The translations under genes were made by a program, and so were the position numbers. Shown in pieces: positions 9,378-48,113 of a DNA stretch of 49,893 bases (its first letter is position 1; each line of letters begins with the position of its first letter). The stretch is from a virus, in IMG/VR virus record IMGVR_UViG_3300028844_003870; one strand, given 5' to 3'. The notes under the pieces were generated by a model, which saw only the letters and a program-made list of their open reading frames with translations, was not told where the DNA came from and made no database searches.

Positions 9378-9400
9378 AAAGCCTCGTTATGAGGCTTTTT
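9378..9400. terminator. bidirectional terminator
   Basis: AAAGCCTC-GTTAT-GAGGCTTT between convergent genes; overlaps the methylase stop codon. Confidence 0.7.
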
Positions 9401-10301
9401 CTATCCTTTCTTTAGCAATATTAAAATACCCTTCATCCATTTCAATGCCTATAAATGATCGGCTTAGGTTTTTAGCTGCTACGCCCGTGCTGCCACTACC
9501 CATAGTCATATCAACTATTAAGTTACCTTCGTTGCTAAATGTCTTTATTAAGTCCTCAAGCAATAAGACAGGCTTTTGCGTTGGGTGGTATCCGTCATAA
9601 TCTTTTTTGTATTTTAGAATGTTTGATTTGAACTTTGCACCTTCTGGTAGGTTAAATACACTGTTAAATACACTGTTAATTTCTGACAGTTCGTCAAATG
9701 ATTTAAACCACACCTCAGCGTCTATACTGTACTTATCGATAAGCGACTTGTAAGCCTGTTCCGTGCATAAGCCAAATTGAGACGACTGACTATTCGCCTC
9801 CATAAAATGCTGTAAAGCACCACTGCCAAATTCAAAATAAAACCTCGACCTACTGTAATTCGTAAAATCCTTTACTTTTAGCGCATAATCTCGCAAAGGA
9901 TGAAGCCCTAAGTGGTCGTGATTTTTACTAAAAACCAAAATATCTTCGTAATAATTTAAAGGTGCTTTTTTTGCTGTTAGAGCATTTGCAAAGTGATCTT
10001 TCTCCCAGATCATTGAATAACTAAACGGCAAGTTGGGAATTGCATTTGTAATTAACTCGGTTGTAAAAGGTTGTTGTGCAAATAAGCACATTTTCCCATT
10101 CTTTCGTAATATTCTGTTTGTTTCATTCATTATAGTGTTAGTATCAATAACAACGTCCCAATTACTAATTCCTAGCTTCCTCCCTCCGTCAGTGTTCATA
10201 GTCCCATATGGCAAATCGCAGACAATTAAATCAACACTACCGCTTTCTATTTCTTTCATTGCAATTAAGCAATCATCATTTATTAATTTTATTTCTTGCA
10301 T
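9387..10301 (-). CDS. DNA methyltransferase (N6-adenine or N4-cytosine, beta-class order)
   Basis: DLIVCDLPYG (motif IV, D-PPY-like) near the N-terminus; MTMGSGSTGVAA...IGIEMD (AdoMet motif I) near the C-terminus. Confidence 0.85.
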   Translation of the reverse strand: MQEIKLINDDCLIAMKEIESGSVDLIVCDLPYGTMNTDGGRKLGISNWDVVIDTNTIMNETNRILRKNGKMCLFAQQPFTTELITNAIPNLPFSYSMIWEKDHFANALTAKKAPLNYYEDILVFSKNHDHLGLHPLRDYALKVKDFTNYSRSRFYFEFGSGALQHFMEANSQSSQFGLCTEQAYKSLIDKYSIDAEVWFKSFDELSEINSVFNSVFNLPEGAKFKSNILKYKKDYDGYHPTQKPVLLLEDLIKTFSNEGNLIVDMTMGSGSTGVAAKNLSRSFIGIEMDEGYFNIAKERIEKAS

Positions 10302-10797
10302 TTATCTCTCTTCCTTTCGGTTCTTTATAGTGGCATGGCTTGCATAGAGTCAGTCCATTGGATATGTCAAGTCTTAACTCTTTATGTGTAGCAAACGGCT
10401 TAATGTGATGGGCCTCAATTATTACGGCGTTTCCAGTTGAACTCCTTGCGTTGCACTTTTGGCAAGTCCAATTATCTCTAGAGAAAACTTTTTCACGCCA
10501 ATCTTTGTATTCTGGGGATCTTCTTATTCTCGCATTCTCGCCGCTAATCCCACCCTTCCAGTTGGGGTTATTCTTGCCAGATCTATCATATACTGCTGAC
10601 TGGACTTTTTTCTTCCCTTTTTGGTGGGACTGGTAACAAATCTTAGAGCAAAATTTATTTTGACCTTTTTCTATCGCTGATTTTTTACGCCAAAACTCAC
10701 CACCGCAAACCAAGCAGTTAAATGCTCCTCCTGTCCTCAGTGATTCTGATATTCTCCTTTTCCTTGCTTCGTTATCTGAAAAAACACCCTTTGCCAT
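10276..10797 (-). CDS. HNH endonuclease with N-terminal zinc-finger-like region
   Basis: CLVCGG...CSKIC then RDNWTCQKC...EAHHIKPF...NGLTLCKPCH. Trimmed to the ATG preceded by GAAGGAG; overlaps the methylase start by 26 nt. Confidence 0.85.
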   Translation of the reverse strand: MAKGVFSDNEARKRRISESLRTGGAFNCLVCGGEFWRKKSAIEKGQNKFCSKICYQSHQKGKKKVQSAVYDRSGKNNPNWKGGISGENARIRRSPEYKDWREKVFSRDNWTCQKCNARSSTGNAVIIEAHHIKPFATHKELRLDISNGLTLCKPCHYKEPKGREINARNKINK

Positions 10798-10932
10798 AAC
10801 AGCTCCTTCATTTTTAAGATTCATGCGCATTGTAACATTGATTTGATTTACTCTCTATGCAGTCGCCCAACATTAAATTTATCATCTTTCACCTCTTCAT
10901 TTAAGTTGCACTAACCATACCCCACAACAAAA

Positions 10933-28083: not shown

Positions 28084-28323
28084 TTATTCATCCTTAATTA
28101 TTCTTGAAAATCTTATTGTATTGTAATCACCAAACATGTTTTTAATTGTAGTGTCTGCATTACCGCTTTTCATAGTTGCAAGCTCTAACATCGGAGCGTA
28201 ATAGTGCAAGTAAATTGCTATTTCTTCATTTGTAACTCTGGCTGGTGCTGTAAATGTGTGTAGAGCCATGCCAGCATAGTATTCAGTTACAGCTTTTGTT
28301 ACACCTATATCAAATATATTCAT
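28084..28323 (-). CDS. hypothetical protein (79 aa)
   Basis: ORF track; packed operon. Confidence 0.55.
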   Translation of the reverse strand: MNIFDIGVTKAVTEYYAGMALHTFTAPARVTNEEIAIYLHYYAPMLELATMKSGNADTTIKNMFGDYNTIRFSRIIKDE

Positions 28324-28805
28324 TTGTACTCCTTAACGTATTCAGTGAATGCTTGTTTAACTGCGTCTAATCCAAGTGCAACAATAGCAATGTTTCCGTG
28401 TTGCTGTTGTGATGAAAGTCTCAGTAATTGATCTTCAAAATGAAATTTCATCTTTTTGCTTGCTAAAGACTTCGCTATGTTCTTTCTCTTTAGCTCGCAT
28501 ATAAACGCAGGAGCGCCTTTTGATATTGGCAGGCACACAATGTCAGCTAAACCATCTAAACGCCCCTTAGCTTTCGATTTGGCGTGGTATGCGTAAGAGC
28601 TACCACCTTGCGGGTTAAACTCTGTTTCAGCATGAAATATTAAATTGTAATATTCTTTATGTTCATAACGAACCCATGCAAAGAAACTAGCCAAGTCTGT
28701 ATCTTCTTTGGGGCAATCGCCACGGTATTTAATATCGCCAACAATTTTAATGCGTAAATCTTCCGCTAACTCAATTGATGATTTTAGTGTTTTATTCTTC
28801 TGCAT
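28320..28805 (-). CDS. PD-(D/E)XK nuclease, VRR-NUC-like
   Basis: GLADIVCLPISKGAPAFICELKRKN fits the G-x-PD...E-x-K core; trimmed to the ATG after AGAGG. Confidence 0.5.
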   Translation of the reverse strand: MQKNKTLKSSIELAEDLRIKIVGDIKYRGDCPKEDTDLASFFAWVRYEHKEYYNLIFHAETEFNPQGGSSYAYHAKSKAKGRLDGLADIVCLPISKGAPAFICELKRKNIAKSLASKKMKFHFEDQLLRLSSQQQHGNIAIVALGLDAVKQAFTEYVKEYK

Positions 28806-29022
28806 ATTCAACCTCTACCCTGACCTCGTTAAAATCAAACCCACGCTCTTCTTTTATAGTTATATAGTCATGCTTATCAATTATCGACTGCATATGCTCC
28901 CTCATTTTTATTGCTATATTTACATTAAAATACGACTTGTAAACATATTCTAAAGATACTTCACCATGCATGGTTTCAACTAAGATTAAGTTGAACTTTA
29001 ATTTTTTATTTTTGTTATTCAT
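28792..29022 (-). CDS. hypothetical protein (76 aa)
   Basis: ORF track; AGGAG RBS. Confidence 0.55.
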   Translation of the reverse strand: MNNKNKKLKFNLILVETMHGEVSLEYVYKSYFNVNIAIKMREHMQSIIDKHDYITIKEERGFDFNEVRVEVEYAEE

Positions 29023-32349: not shown

Positions 32350-32922
32350 TTACTGGTTTAATTTTATTTCAATAGAGTTAGGGGCCTCATTTCCGAAAAC
32401 GTCCCAACCCTCCGAAGCATTTCTGGCGAACATTTCAAGCCTTGGGATGTCTCCGAATAAGCTTTCTATTCTAGTCATCACTTCTTTTGGCTTTCTGCTG
32501 TGCTTTGTTCTTTCTGCAATAACGAGTGACTCTATATTATTCGCTAACTTGTATTTTGACATCGCCCCTTTTGTAGCAAGAATGCAAACTTCACTGCTTT
32601 TCATTGTCCATGGGGCAACGTTTTTGCAATAATTCCCCTTGCTTGTGGTTTTAACCCAGTTGAAGGCAATTGTTTTGAACTTAAATCCCCACGCACTAAC
32701 TAACTCTAGCGCATCTGGAAGGTGTGAGTCGGTCACCCACATGAACAAAGCGCAGTCATCGTCGCTTATGGACTTAATGTCCATCATGGCAAGGTCTTTT
32801 GTTTTTGTTGTCATGTATTGCTCCGATAAGCTTTTAATCTCGTTTCCTTTAGAATTGTTAACTGCAGACTTACTTCCATAGTGCCATGGTGGATCAGCGT
32901 AAATTACTTTGTATTTTTTCAT
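32350..32922 (-). CDS. MT-A70-family DNA N6-adenine methyltransferase
   Basis: KVIYADPPWHYGS (DPPW catalytic motif) at the N-terminus; 190 aa. Confidence 0.85.
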   Translation of the reverse strand: MKKYKVIYADPPWHYGSKSAVNNSKGNEIKSLSEQYMTTKTKDLAMMDIKSISDDDCALFMWVTDSHLPDALELVSAWGFKFKTIAFNWVKTTSKGNYCKNVAPWTMKSSEVCILATKGAMSKYKLANNIESLVIAERTKHSRKPKEVMTRIESLFGDIPRLEMFARNASEGWDVFGNEAPNSIEIKLNQ

Positions 32923-34632: not shown

Positions 34633-34866
34633 TTATTTTTTACCTCTATCTAATATTAATTGCATTTCCTTTGCTGAAACCCTAGTGCCGTCTAACTTTA
34701 AGTATGTTGCAGCGGTGTTTATGTAAACCTCAAGAGGAAAACTCTTTTTGTAGCCATCCATGTTCTTTAGGAATACGTGCACAGTAGTTGTGATTTCACG
34801 GCAATTAAGCGCTTCTCGTGTTAACTTTACAGCCTTCACTATATTCTTTATGTTAGATTCTCTCAT
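34633..34866 (-). CDS. hypothetical protein (77 aa)
   Basis: ORF track. Confidence 0.55.
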   Translation of the reverse strand: MRESNIKNIVKAVKLTREALNCREITTTVHVFLKNMDGYKKSFPLEVYINTAATYLKLDGTRVSAKEMQLILDRGKK

Positions 34867-34922: not shown

Positions 34923-34955
34923 GCACTTAATTAAGTAATGCAACTAATTAAGTGC
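34923..34955. promoter_or_regulatory. 33-bp palindrome (11-bp perfect arms)
   Basis: GCACTTAATTA-N11-TAATTAAGTGC between two minus-strand genes; on the minus strand it lies directly upstream of a TATACT -10-like hexamer. Confidence 0.5.
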
Positions 34956-34963
34956 AAATTATT

Positions 34964-35287
34964 TTATTTATTTCCAATATATCTGATTTCAACAGAAACT
35001 CCACGCTCTTCTGCTCGCTTTATTCCGTACTCCATGCCACTTGTGATACCACGGTCAGCATAAACAACTGAACCATGAGACACTTCGCGCCACGCTAAAC
35101 CAGCATCGATGCCCATTTTGCGCTCTAGTGGGTTTTCATCGTCTAATATTCCTTCTTGCGTGTAAAGCAAATGACTCGCAATTGGTGACTCACCTCTCAA
35201 TAAACTGTCTTTTACGCATTTACGGGCGTATTTGATGTTTGCTTCTACGTCACCCGCAAATGGGCTTTCCAATATTACTAGTTTCAT
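34964..35287 (-). CDS. small Rossmann-like protein (nucleoside 2-deoxyribosyltransferase-like? unverified)
   Basis: MKLVILESPFAGD...SPIASHLLY pattern; AAGGAG RBS. Confidence 0.55.
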   Translation of the reverse strand: MKLVILESPFAGDVEANIKYARKCVKDSLLRGESPIASHLLYTQEGILDDENPLERKMGIDAGLAWREVSHGSVVYADRGITSGMEYGIKRAEERGVSVEIRYIGNK

Positions 35288-35335
35288 GCTTTTCTCCTTA
35301 TTGGTGCAACAGGTTATTCCGCTGCACCTATTTAT

Positions 35336-36538
35336 TTAATATTTACCAAACATTCCAGCGTCGTCAGAGTTTCCGACTTCTTCCTGGTGTAGCATATAGT
35401 TTTGACGGCCAACTTCTTTGCCGCATACATGGTATTCAACCATGACGCACTCTAGCTCACTCAGATAGCCTTTTGATGCGTGCCATGCATCATTGGGAGC
35501 TAAGTTTGCAAAGCCTTCTACCTTGCCGCCTAGGGACTCAATGACTGATTTAGAGTGAAAGTGACCGTGTAATGCTCGACGCAAAATAGTATCGCCCCAC
35601 ATTTTAGGCTCTTTAGCAGACATATAAGGGATCATCTTTATTGGTGTGATGTTGTGACCATGAGTAGCCATGAGCATAACTTTACCGAACTGATAAAACC
35701 ATGTATCTGCTGGGGACATTTCTATTGATACCCGTGGTTCATTTCTCCAGTAGGCGTCCATTTGATAGCGCAAAGCCATTGCCAGCTCTAAGTCATGATT
35801 ACCTAACACGTTTCTCACAACTACTTTTTTGTGCTTCTGCAGTGCCATTTCTGTGATCTGGTTCATAACTTGGCATGTGATTCTAAATATCTTATCAACA
35901 CGACCATCTGCATCTAATGGGTTGCCACTTGCCTTGGTGGAATGTGTGTCATCATGAAAGTGAATTGCATCACCTAAGTTTAATATGATCGCTGTTTCTG
36001 AGTTGTTTGCACGTCCTATTAAGTCGGCCATTGAATTTATCATATCGCTTGTTGCAATCTTAAGATTGAAATCTACTCCTACCTCTTCATGCCAGGCGTG
36101 CATACCAAAGTGCATATCACCGATGTTGTAAACACTTAGCAAGTCTTTGTTATTTTTACGTGGCACTCGTATCTTTGGCGCTAAACCTTCGATCTGTTTA
36201 GTCATATCAGTAAGAACTCGGCTTACTGCTGCAATAGGATCGTTAGCTTTTGTCTTGATCCAACAAGGCTTACCCTCTGCATTGGTAACCATGTTAGAGA
36301 CTTCTTTAATATGAAACCCATCTGGAACCATGTCGCCAATACCTACATCATGAGGCTTGGTTAGTTGTTTATTTGCCTTGTTACGTACCGCTTTTAACTG
36401 TTGTGTAACGCAAGGCTGTGTAATGCCCAAGTGTTCAGCTACGGCTTTTTGCGTGCCTAATTTAACAAAAGCATCTACAATTTTTTTCTGCTTGTTAGTG
36501 CAAAACTGGTCTATATTTGGATCTGTGTAATCAAACAT
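35336..36538 (-). CDS. HTH domain fused to a calcineurin-like metallophosphoesterase
   Basis: N-terminal KIVDAFVKLGTQKAVAEHLGITQPCVTQQLKAVRNKA (sigma-r4/LuxR-like HTH), then IGDMHFG, LGDAIHFHD, LGNHD, THGH, HGHFH phosphoesterase blocks. Confidence 0.75.
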   Translation of the reverse strand: MFDYTDPNIDQFCTNKQKKIVDAFVKLGTQKAVAEHLGITQPCVTQQLKAVRNKANKQLTKPHDVGIGDMVPDGFHIKEVSNMVTNAEGKPCWIKTKANDPIAAVSRVLTDMTKQIEGLAPKIRVPRKNNKDLLSVYNIGDMHFGMHAWHEEVGVDFNLKIATSDMINSMADLIGRANNSETAIILNLGDAIHFHDDTHSTKASGNPLDADGRVDKIFRITCQVMNQITEMALQKHKKVVVRNVLGNHDLELAMALRYQMDAYWRNEPRVSIEMSPADTWFYQFGKVMLMATHGHNITPIKMIPYMSAKEPKMWGDTILRRALHGHFHSKSVIESLGGKVEGFANLAPNDAWHASKGYLSELECVMVEYHVCGKEVGRQNYMLHQEEVGNSDDAGMFGKY

Positions 36539-36572
36539 GGTGTTTCCTTATTTTGTGTTGAATTGATAAAAT

Positions 36573-37598
36573 TTAAAGTGCTTCGCATGATTCAGAGCAT
36601 CCGCCATCTTCATCTTCTGAAGACTTTCTCATGCTTCTAATTGTGCTTTCAAGTTCAGAACGACTCAGATGCTCGAACTTCTTGATGATTGAATCTATAT
36701 TATTATTTCCACGATAAATAATTCCGTGCTTTTGTAGCTCATGTATTTTTGGCAGGTCTTCTCTTAAGTTCGCTTTGTTTAAAGCTTCCTTCCATTTTTC
36801 AAATAACTCTGGCTCATCCCTAATTGCCAATGCAATTTTATTGACTGACTTTTTCACGCAGAAAACACAGTTTCCTAGGTGTTCTTTGATCTCTAAATCA
36901 AATGGCATCTTAGACCAAAACCTCAACACGTCAGATTTGTCAAAATCTGAAATCTCAGCAAGATAGTGTAAGTCTTCTTTTTTATCTCTAGCATCAAGGT
37001 AATTGAATGCGTTTTTAAATGCGATTGCGTGTTCAGCTCCGTTATAAAACATTTTCGCAAATGGCAATTCACCGCCTTCTGCCCAAGCTAAAAACATATC
37101 TGAAATATATTCCTTGTCGTAACCTAATGATGAAAGCTCCTTGTACGCTTCCTGTCCTATTAATCTTGATGGTTCATCTCGACGAATACCTAGCCACATC
37201 TCACTTCCGTTTTTCCCAAAGTTATCAACGCGCCACTTATCAGCAAGCGTTTTCTTTAACTCTCTAGTGCAAGAAGCAGCATTGAAGCTTGGCTTTCCGT
37301 ATTTCTCCATTACTTGTGTTATTGGTAGCATGTCACAACCAATCTCATCGATAGGTACGACTTTGTAATCGCTAGACTTACGCCCTGTTCTTACTATTGG
37401 TCTTAGACACGCCAAGTCTATTTCAAAGTGATTCACTACGTTCTTAATGAAGTCATAAGTTTTAGGGTGCTCGGCTCCAGTGTCTAGGTATAAGAATTTA
37501 ATATTATTCTTGCCAAACTTCTTAATCATCTCTGCAACGTTTACTGCGCTAGATCTTCCGCCGCTAAAGCTTGATACTATTTGCTTTGAATTGCTCAT
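36573..37598 (-). CDS. PAPS-reductase-family PP-loop ATP pyrophosphatase-like protein
   Basis: SFSGGRSSAV (PP-loop SGGxxS) and YLDTGAEHPKTYDF (PAPS_reduct-type block); CVFC and CSESC cysteine pairs. Trimmed to the ATG after GAGGAA. Confidence 0.75.
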   Translation of the reverse strand: MSNSKQIVSSFSGGRSSAVNVAEMIKKFGKNNIKFLYLDTGAEHPKTYDFIKNVVNHFEIDLACLRPIVRTGRKSSDYKVVPIDEIGCDMLPITQVMEKYGKPSFNAASCTRELKKTLADKWRVDNFGKNGSEMWLGIRRDEPSRLIGQEAYKELSSLGYDKEYISDMFLAWAEGGELPFAKMFYNGAEHAIAFKNAFNYLDARDKKEDLHYLAEISDFDKSDVLRFWSKMPFDLEIKEHLGNCVFCVKKSVNKIALAIRDEPELFEKWKEALNKANLREDLPKIHELQKHGIIYRGNNNIDSIIKKFEHLSRSELESTIRSMRKSSEDEDGGCSESCEAL

Positions 37599-37890: not shown

Positions 37891-37950
37891 TTATTATTTA
37901 ATATATATTTAATATATAGGTTATTATTTATATATGCAAATTATTATTTA
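37891..37950. repeat. AT-rich iteron-like cluster
   Basis: TTATTATTTA at 37891, 37921 and 37941; TTTAATATATA twice between 37897 and 37918. Confidence 0.6.
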
Positions 37951-38160
37951 AAATTTATTACTGACGAATGTGGTCACTGATACCGTTTTCTTTTTAAGAC
38001 CTAGATCAGCAAGCATTGCATCAGATGGTGGTTTATTCTTGTTAAGAACGGCATTAAGATACTGCCTAGATACACCCTTTCTTTCAGCATAAACGCTATT
38101 TCTGCCGCATTGAGCTTTAATGAATTTCTCTAGTTTTTTAATTACTTCATCTATTTCCAT
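37948..38160 (-). CDS. Cro/YdaS-like HTH regulator
   Basis: NSVYAERKGVSRQYLNAVLNKNKPPS; first gene of the minus-strand early block; trimmed to the ATG after GAGGAG. Confidence 0.6.
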   Translation of the reverse strand: MEIDEVIKKLEKFIKAQCGRNSVYAERKGVSRQYLNAVLNKNKPPSDAMLADLGLKKKTVSVTTFVSNKF

Positions 38161-38187
38161 GCTTTTCTCCTCTGTTGATTTACACAA

Positions 38188-47259: not shown

Positions 47260-47661
47260 ATGAAATTCGAACACGTAACAAGTAAAATTATCCAGTGGCA
47301 TCATGACCGCAACTTGATTGATGGTGCAACAGACTGGACGCAAACAGAAAAGATGATGGAAGAACTGTTAGAGTTGATTGCATCACAGCTACCAGGTGAA
47401 TATGAGCCGTCGGATATAGCCTTTGCAGGGAATCAGATTATTAATGACCTTTTGCTTAAGGGTAGAATTAAGTCTGTCGCAGAAGAAGATAAGGCAAAAG
47501 CAAAGTTAGATGCTTTAGGTGATATGACCGTTGTTGCTATCAACATCGCAGAACGTAATAGCTCATCATTAGATACATGCATGAACCTTGCGTGGAATGA
47601 AATTAAAGATCGTAAAGGTCAAATGATTAATGGTACTTTTATTAAGGAGTCGGATTTATGA
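47260..47661 (+). CDS. MazG-like nucleotide pyrophosphohydrolase
   Basis: IIQWHHDRNLIDGATDWTQTEKMMEELLEL typical of the MazG/NTP-PPase fold. Confidence 0.7.
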   Translation: MKFEHVTSKIIQWHHDRNLIDGATDWTQTEKMMEELLELIASQLPGEYEPSDIAFAGNQIINDLLLKGRIKSVAEEDKAKAKLDALGDMTVVAINIAERNSSSLDTCMNLAWNEIKDRKGQMINGTFIKESDL

Positions 47662-48113
47662 ACATATTAAAATTGCTAGAGTTTGAAGAGGGTTATCGCG
47701 AAAAGCCATACATTGATAGCCTTGGTTACCCAACGGTTGCCATAGGTAAGCGTATAGGCCCAAAAGGCGCATCAATTGACCTGTACCAGTTTAAGGTGTC
47801 AAAGCTAATGGCTTCTTTGTGGCTAGAGGAAGAAGTTGCTCATACCGTTCGCGTTGCTAATGCGCAGGAATGGTTTAAGCCTTTAAGCGATGATCGAAAG
47901 GTAATTATCCTATCGATGATTTATCAAATGGGCTTGGTTGGCGTGCTTAAGTTTAAAAATATGATTAAAGCTTTAGAGTCTCGCAACTGGAAAGAAGCAG
48001 AGAAGCAAGCTTTAGATAGTTTGTGGGCGCGACAAACCCCTGAGCGAGCATTGCGCCATGCTAAGGCGTTAGGTGGTGATAAACTGGCGGATGTGTACAA
48101 AGGTTTAATTTGA
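47658..48113 (+). CDS. endolysin, T4-type lysozyme (GH24)
   Basis: LLEFEEGYREKPYIDSLGYPTVAIG carries the E-D-T catalytic triad spacing. Confidence 0.85.
   Translation: MNILKLLEFEEGYREKPYIDSLGYPTVAIGKRIGPKGASIDLYQFKVSKLMASLWLEEEVAHTVRVANAQEWFKPLSDDRKVIILSMIYQMGLVGVLKFKNMIKALESRNWKEAEKQALDSLWARQTPERALRHAKALGGDKLADVYKGLI

Follow-up and report, generated by a model that had tools for sequence, protein, structure and literature searches.

Three minus-strand genes and their families

We examined positions 34,964 to 37,598 of the IMG/VR virus record IMGVR_UViG_3300028844_003870, a stretch of 49,893 nucleotides that is hereafter referred to as the window. A first-pass annotation made from the letters alone had placed three consecutive genes there, and had read them as one candidate module for the modification of DNA or nucleotides. 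All three open reading frames (ORFs) were recovered on the minus strand at the same coordinates in the ORF list of the window (Table 1), each behind a Shine-Dalgarno site (GAGGA 5 nt before the ATG at 37598 for gene 1, AGGAA for gene 2, and AGGAG for gene 3). The domain calls of a PAPS-reductase PP-loop for gene 1 and a calcineurin-type phosphoesterase for gene 2 were borne out by Pfam, PHROG, and motif evidence. The families are not unknown ones: gene 1 belongs to the NinC family of phage lambda and gene 2 to phrog_704, which is present in 2,074 phage records, while gene 3 is a member of DUF7768. The comparison of related loci described below indicates that these are probably separately shuffled accessory genes and not a dedicated DNA-modification pathway.

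Gene 1 carries the motifs SFSGGRSS, YLDTGAEHPKTYDF, NCVFC, and CSESC. The Pfam model PAPS_reduct covers its residues 10-82 only (E = 1e-8), and its PHROG matches, phrog_424 (E = 1e-54) and phrog_33262 (E = 2e-75), are both named 'PAPS reductase'. A BLASTP alignment with lambda NinC runs end to end over residues 8-339 (30% identity, E = 9e-44), and GenBank phage records name its homologues 'NinC'; judged by its sequence, gene 1 is a full-length homologue of lambda NinC within the PAPS-reductase superfamily. Common to the two proteins are SFSGGRTSA, DTGxEHP, CT, GIRxDEP, PFDL, HLGNCxFCxKK, and GxCSESCE, with a helical insert of about 55 aa in gene 1 relative to lambda NinC. Across the NinC-like family (811 clusters at E < 1e-5; 528 phage records), the invariant elements of alignment A1 are a near-canonical PP-loop (SFSGGR[ST]S), DTGAEHPKTY, a Cys-Thr pair, GxRxDEPxR, HLGNCVFCxKK, and a C-terminal GxCxESCE. 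The conserved cysteines of gene 1 are Cys110, the CxxC pair Cys244/247, and Cys334/338. In the AlphaFold2 (AF2) model (pLDDT 87), the tail from residue 329 falls below 50, which places Cys334/338 on a disordered C-terminal tail. The conserved cysteines suggest that the protein probably holds an iron-sulfur (Fe-S) centre. The closest solved sequence relative of the family is chain C of PDB entry 21fy, 'PptA' (270 aa, profile E = 3e-5), which has FSxGxxSA, EHP, Cys-Thr, and NCVxCVK in common with it; a literature search found no publication describing this structure, and a PDB query with the MT-A70 protein of the window revealed no partner chains of 21fy. The public gene call (P0001, 318 aa) begins downstream of the PP-loop and is probably too short, as the ATG at 37598 with its GAGGA site yields a 341-aa product containing the SFSGGRSS loop.

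Structural comparison of gene 1 by Foldseek placed APS reductase and TtuA on top and also gave GMP synthase and LarE, with the superposition confined to the PP-loop core (TM-score 0.28-0.35 for the top matches, 0.25-0.35 overall). The [4Fe-4S] tRNA thiolases TtuA and TtcA resemble gene 1 in combining a PP-loop with CxxC and a further cysteine (Foldseek E of about 1e-3), but the TM-scores of 0.25-0.30 and the zinc-finger domains missing in gene 1 indicate a likeness at the superfamily level only. CysH and APS reductase resemble gene 1 in having a DTG motif and, at the N-terminus, a PP-loop core, with 2goy, 6vpu, and 1sur among the top Foldseek and PDB matches; the N-terminal 70 residues align, and the conserved cysteine on a flexible C-terminal tail is also as in CysH. 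In contrast, there is no such agreement in the C-terminal half or in the catalytic motif of the tail, and the structures superpose at the PP-loop core only (TM-score 0.28-0.33). The NCBIfam scores of gene 1 lie far below the cut-offs (NF002537, 26.2 bits against 154; TIGR00434, 17 against 165; TIGR02055, 19.9 against 235). CysH and APS reductases carry a C-terminal ECG[LI]H catalytic motif. This motif is absent from gene 1, which ends in GGCSESCEAL and thus has CxESCE in place of ECGLH, together with an extra invariant CxxC and, in the alignments, a near-canonical ATP-type SGGxxS loop as opposed to the degenerate loop of CysH. By its sub-cut-off scores, the missing ECGLH, and the ATP-pyrophosphatase-type loop, gene 1 is not a CysH.

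Lambda NinC and gene 1 are alike in position, both lying among accessory genes of replication and recombination. The operon around gene 1 has a primase, helicases, and a RecE-like exonuclease, an early replication/recombination setting, and the typical setting of NinC is a lambdoid nin-like region with repressor, O, DnaB, NinB, NinG, and RusA (named by eye from cluster representatives, except NinG, which was a Pfam match). The two differ in that lambda ninC lies between ninB and ninD whereas gene 1 heads a leftward early operon, and in that lambda is without a phage methylase whereas the phage of the window has methylases. Lambda ninC is dispensable, of unknown function, and has been called 'poorly understood' (PMC10695390; PMC3224144).

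Gene 2 matches phrog_704 ('DNA repair exonuclease') at E = 1e-89, and its Pfam matches are weak, one to an HTH (helix-turn-helix) and one to Metallophos (17.5 bits, below the gathering cut-off of 21.5). It joins an HTH of about 60 residues, conserved at the N-terminus, to a calcineurin-type phosphoesterase with the five motifs GDMH, GDAIH, GNHD, THGH, and GHFH; alignment A2 (32 sequences) has GDxH, GDxxH, GNHD, THG[HD], and GHxH as invariant or near-invariant motifs. A search of viral contigs with the single gene 2 sequence gave nothing, and the relatives came from an alignment-based search. The phrog_704 records include T1-like phages (Rtp, Jk06), Webervirus, Jersey-like, and Vibrio phages, whose members show the same architecture of HTH and metallophosphoesterase, although gene 2 shares no more than 27-35% identity with the phage members listed from GenBank. 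Foldseek returned the PolD DP1 exonuclease, LpxH, Vps29, SbcD, Mre11, and Rv0805 (TM-score 0.3-0.37), with the scores against Mre11/SbcD (0.33-0.36) no better than those against LpxH or Vps29. The Mre11/SbcD match in the PDB profile search was likewise weak (E = 0.0035 over 80 residues), and Pfam and PHROG scans of the operon found no SbcC/Rad50-like partner. Lambda NinI was also considered as a relative of gene 2 and was rejected, showing no significant sequence similarity.

Gene 3 matches Pfam DUF7768 (PF24963; E = 2e-31) and phrog_355 (E = 1e-22), the latter carrying, as do some GenBank records, the label 'nucleoside 2-deoxyribosyltransferase' (NDT). This single-domain family comprises at least 7,996 clusters and is among the most conserved small phage proteins met in this analysis: the 120 best matches listed are 64-79% identical and about 105-130 aa long, and identities of 50-69% extend to T4-like Yersinia phages, jumbo Pectobacterium/Erwinia phages, Gordonia actinophages, and Cellulophaga phages. 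Its invariant motifs are ESPFAGD, SH.L.TQ, ER..GI, and Y.D.G (alignment A3). We take Glu86 in the ..SGMEYG.. segment of gene 3 to be the position of the NDT catalytic glutamate; read by eye as ..GME.G.., this residue is variable and is not among the invariant or near-invariant columns of A3. NDT and Rcl (DNPH1) proteins are also much longer than the DUF7768 protein of about 107 aa. Searches of the PDB with the single sequence or a profile at E 10 gave no sequence match, and we found no paper on DUF7768 in the literature. At 7 of the 29 metagenomic loci, DUF7768 directly abuts or overlaps a DNA methylase gene (N6_N4 or MT-A70 type); elsewhere its neighbours include a dUTPase (T4-like Yersinia phage), a DNA ligase, and, at five loci, a protein resembling dCMP deaminase by eye.

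Conservation of the gene neighbourhood

The three genes of the window are separated by gaps of 34 and 48 nt, and a consensus scan found no terminator-like site between them on their strand; the short gaps and the lack of an intervening site make co-transcription of the NinC-like, phosphoesterase, and DUF7768 genes likely. We then tested their linkage in loci of ±6 kb from IMG/VR viral contigs (84 NinC, 80 phosphoesterase, and 29 DUF7768 relatives), in which all ORFs were compared with profile hidden Markov models of the three families. The NinC loci held the phosphoesterase once, 4 kb off and on the opposite strand, and never DUF7768. Distant PAPS-like genes occurred in two of the phosphoesterase loci and DUF7768 in none, and neither NinC nor the phrog_704 phosphoesterase was present at any DUF7768 locus. 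Close relatives kept other company: a 57%-identical NinC is directly followed by MT-A70 (L001), another by an SNF2 helicase (L076), and in a phage whose large terminase subunit (TerL) is 58% identical NinC is followed by a gene resembling MazG by eye, while phosphoesterases 63-70% identical to gene 2 (L114-L116) stand alone. In Vibrio phages related to the window by their capsid, the NinC-like gene is either encoded 3.7 kb from the other two on the opposite strand or not present in the stretch sequenced around them, and the identities to the window are 38% for the NinC-like protein, 30% for the phosphoesterase, and 58% for DUF7768. Given this lack of co-occurrence in the neighbourhoods of related genomes, the claim of a three-gene module in the first-pass annotation fails by the refuting condition stated there, and the locus appears ordinary, with three widespread accessory genes neighbouring by chance.

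Within the trio, the step from phosphoesterase to DUF7768 is the only one that recurred. Immediately upstream of DUF7768, both the window and the capsid-related Vibrio siphophages carry a calcineurin-type phosphoesterase gene; in the siphophages the pair occupies another genome position, beside endolysin and head genes, and is sometimes split by an HNH gene. The phosphoesterase of the pair is phrog_704 in the window and in the Vibrio siphophages, and phrog_221 in the Autographiviridae podophages Cronobacter GY3 and Vibrio phi-A318 and in one metagenomic contig (L091). These results suggest that, of the three genes, only phosphoesterase and DUF7768 may behave as a small cassette. A MazG-like nucleotide pyrophosphohydrolase gene adjoins the endolysin gene of the window (47260-48113), and in the capsid-related Vibrio phages the phosphoesterase-DUF7768 pair occupies the region corresponding to this MazG/endolysin stretch.

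Linkage of NinC to DNA methylases and possible functions

Of 82 viral loci, 15 encode the NinC-like domain in a fusion with an N6-adenine DNA methyltransferase. The fused methylases belong to three families (phage Dam, PF05869; D12, PF02086; and MT-A70), occur in both domain orders, and retain intact catalytic [DN]PP[YW] motifs. A methylase lies within 1.5 kb of NinC in 21 of the 82 loci and within 6 kb in 28, against none of 78 phosphoesterase loci used as a control. The nearest viral relative (L001) encodes in one ORF a NinC-like domain (57% identical) and an MT-A70 domain (44% identical), whereas in the window the two are separate genes, with MT-A70 four genes downstream. The fusion pattern is one of the family and not of the window specifically. 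Such repeated fusions support a nucleic-acid-directed role of the PAPS-reductase-like protein and are the strongest clue that the NinC family may act on DNA, or together with DNA methylation; a DNA-directed role of NinC is plausible, and the MT-A70 methylase of the operon is likely to be a functional associate of the NinC-like protein. The proposal of a DNA-modification role in the first-pass annotation accordingly survives in part: the methylase fusions favour the nucleic-acid direction of the NinC-like protein, while a joint pathway of three genes finds no such backing. The fusions also offer a concrete, testable starting point for a lambda gene that has gone unexplained for decades.

We can outline how such a locus would work. 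The region is probably a mosaic stretch heading the early operon of a Vibrio-type siphophage, in which three genes with separate evolutionary histories have come together. The NinC-like protein would most likely consume ATP at its PP-loop in adenylating a substrate, while group or sulfur transfer would fall to the CxxC-plus-Cys centre, which is probably Fe-S, and to the mobile tail with its two cysteines. Its target would most likely be phage DNA, within or close to the sites that the associated methylase recognises, and it would work beside the MT-A70 methylase of the operon in protecting or marking phage DNA, in an anti-restriction or marking role. The HTH-phosphoesterase, which shares the operon with the RecE-like exonuclease, the SNF2 helicase, and the primase, would most likely be a nuclease or phosphodiesterase that depends on metal and works on DNA ends in replication or recombination. 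DUF7768, whose neighbours (phosphoesterases, DNA methylases, and dUTPase- or deaminase-like genes) point to deoxynucleotide handling, would most likely have a nucleotide or deoxynucleotide as its substrate, and might for instance remove or convert those that the phosphoesterase sets free. In its specific form, with NinC as a DNA-directed PP-loop/Fe-S enzyme at or beside N6-adenine methylation sites, writing an undescribed DNA modification (a thio- or adenylate-derived mark, for instance) or processing DNA that carries N6-methyladenine (m6A) for anti-restriction, and separately with phosphoesterase and DUF7768 as a nucleotide-processing cassette, this scheme is tentative and we regard it as doubtful. 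If it is true, the long-unexplained ninC of lambda would gain its first functional clue from the repeated fusion of NinC-like domains to methylases of three families.

Several points weigh against this picture of separately acquired genes with these activities. The tight packing, the good ribosome-binding sites, and the lack of a terminator between the three genes indicate that they are co-expressed here, and their lineage-specific cooperation is possible. Each of the three families has many records from Vibrio phages (340, 254, and 263), and such abundance in a heavily sampled phage lineage implies a high co-occurrence at the level of genomes. In 26 of the 29 metagenomic DUF7768 loci there is no phosphoesterase within 6 kb, which means that the pair is not obligate. 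The putative NDT-like fold of DUF7768 is a PHROG and GenBank label, and the Fe-S centre of the NinC-like protein is read from conserved cysteines only.

An alternative that we consider unlikely is that phosphoesterase and DUF7768 form a counter-defence pair destroying a nucleotide alarm signal (such as a cyclic oligonucleotide, an ADP-ribose (ADPR)-derived molecule, or N6-methyl-dAMP (m6-dAMP)) by phosphodiester and then N-glycosidic cleavage. The recurrence of the adjacency with two phosphoesterase families is consistent with it, as are the extreme conservation of DUF7768 across unrelated phages, which suggests a universal small-molecule ligand, and the presence of the cyclic nucleotide phosphodiesterase Rv0805 among the Foldseek matches of gene 2. 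DUF7768 also abuts adenine methylases, and a preprint reports m6-dAMP as a defence trigger (bioRxiv 10.64898/2026.01.15.699771). However, a DNA-binding HTH forms part of the phosphoesterase, the proteins closest to it in structure and sequence are nucleases, and most DUF7768 loci have no phosphoesterase. The pair matched no PADLOC or anti-defence family, and Glu86, at the presumed NDT-type catalytic position, is not an invariant or near-invariant column of A3.

It is distinctly unlikely that the NinC-like protein writes phosphorothioate (PT) in the manner of DndC, SspD, or BrxP, drawing on a host desulfurase and perhaps on host Ssp or Dnd partners, so as to imitate the marks of the host and evade the PT-dependent restriction that is common in Vibrio. 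SspD, BrxP, and DndC share with gene 1 the PP-loop superfamily, conserved cysteines, and an inferred DNA substrate, the last implied for the NinC family by the methylase fusions, and gene 1 has the PP-loop and a tail with two cysteines. SspD was its best match in the PADLOC defence library (33 bits, E = 1e-8, residues 8-145 only), followed by BrxP (17 bits). These scores are far below family level and PADLOC gave no DndC match, so that the analogy to Dnd, Ssp, and BREX type 4 drawn in the first-pass annotation is weak. Unlike those proteins, gene 1 is without a DUF4007 domain, a paired NTPase, a nickase, or a desulfurase. We know of no report of PT in the DNA of lambda, which carries NinC and is a heavily used standard. 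No DndD-, SspC-, or BrxC-like neighbour was identified when the genes around gene 1 (phosphoesterase, DUF7768, DUF3987 protein, and SNF2 helicase) were compared with Pfam and PHROGs, PADLOC having been run on the three genes only, and no nickase adjoins it. Cysteine desulfurase, DndD/E, TGT/DpdA, and QueC/D/E were not seen among the ORFs scanned (about 1-9, 11-26, and 45.7-47.2 kb being unscanned). Host IscS is able to substitute for DndA (PMC10853773). All established PT systems need a paired P-loop NTPase (DndD, SspC, or BrxC), and PT was absent from isolates in which the PAPS-reductase gene stood alone (PMC12914056). The reappraisal of Dnd systems by the Aravind laboratory says nothing on phage NinC-like proteins.

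We find it very unlikely that the three proteins constitute one new module for DNA or nucleotide modification, in which a phosphoesterase and an NDT-like transferase would cooperate with an enzyme of adenylation or sulfur transfer. In favour of it, the three neighbouring genes share a strand and probably a transcript, nucleotide-related folds are present in all three, and each family occurs often in one and the same lineage of Vibrio phages. Nevertheless, the adjacency is not conserved in the sampled loci, close relatives of each gene have different neighbours, and the capsid-related phages keep phosphoesterase and DUF7768 together with the NinC-like gene unlinked or outside the sequenced stretch.

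Least credible of all, and in our view highly improbable, is the reading of the NinC-like protein as an auxiliary metabolic CysH-type PAPS/APS reductase that boosts host sulfate assimilation, which follows the usual database label and the interpretation of such genes as cysH in virome papers (PMC13369170), but which is contradicted by the comparisons above, by the position of the gene among replication and recombination genes, and by the fusions to DNA methylases in many phages, which argue against a metabolic meaning of the label. Virome studies count phage 'PAPS reductase / cysH' genes as auxiliary genes of sulfur metabolism, and the family considered here consists of NinC homologues that fail every CysH test.

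Phage background and other features of the window

Siphophages of V. crassostreae and V. cyclitrophicus (K0139, 1220 g2, and 1.286.O) have capsid proteins with 79-80% identity, and head proteases with 57-70% identity, to the proteins of the window, which places the phage in that Vibrio siphophage lineage. At the nucleotide level, the region matches sequenced phages over 43 nt only (37442-37484, 95% identical to Vibrio phages 1.039.O and 1.061.O), within the part of the NinC-like gene that encodes DTGAEHPKTY. No paralogues of the three genes were found elsewhere in the window. A small HTH gene and a 67-aa ORF precede the trio, the genes that follow it include those of replication and recombination listed in Table 1, and the terminase genes run divergently on the opposite strand from 38739; the operon content and the divergent terminase genes indicate that the trio heads the early replication/recombination operon of a tailed phage.

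Table 1. Positions of the three genes, of other features of the window, and of related arrangements in other viral contigs
Feature	Position	Strand	Remarks
NinC-family gene (gene 1)	36573-37598 (alternative start 37610)	-	341-345 aa
HTH-phosphoesterase gene (gene 2)	35336-36538	-	400 aa
DUF7768 gene (gene 3)	34964-35287	-	107 aa
Small HTH gene	37948-38187		precedes the trio
Inverted repeat	34923-34955	-	11 bp, perfect; GCACTTAATTA ... TAATTAAGTGC; read by eye
77-aa ORF	34633-34866	-	next gene downstream in the operon
DUF3987 protein			downstream of the 77-aa ORF, same direction; labelled 'DNA helicase' by phrog_2373
MT-A70 adenine methylase	32350-32922	-	PF05063, E = 8e-31; DPPW motif intact; same operon
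Primase zinc-ribbon protein			operon, downstream of the trio (Pfam/PHROG scans)
SNF2/ResIII helicase			operon, downstream of the trio (Pfam/PHROG scans)
RecE-like PD-(D/E)XK exonuclease			operon, downstream of the trio (Pfam/PHROG scans)
phrog_11517 protein			operon, downstream of the trio
phrog_824 protein	28320-28811		unknown function; operon, downstream of the trio
N6_N4 DNA methylase	9387-10301	-	inside the plus-strand structural module
HNH endonuclease	10276-10830	-	paired with the N6_N4 methylase in the plus-strand structural module
NinC-methylase fusions (examples)	L001:638-2266		also proteins P0024, P0091, P0100 (NinC-Dam), P0106
Phosphoesterase-to-DUF7768 pairs	L194:5757-7336, L195:5198-7330, L201:4080-6336, L198:1727-3324, L200:1919-3336
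DUF7768-methylase loci	L090, L097, L098, L102, L104, L105, L107

The 77-aa ORF matched no Pfam or PHROG family. The inverted repeat just upstream of it lies 9 nt past the DUF7768 stop codon and overlaps promoter-like hexamers (TTGCAT-16 nt-TATACT); the consensus scan did not report this repeat, which may be an operator or an internal promoter. The two DNA methylases that had been noted elsewhere in the window are confirmed as the MT-A70 gene of the operon and the N6_N4 gene, the latter forming with the HNH gene a pair (9387-10830) that resembles a mobile insertion.

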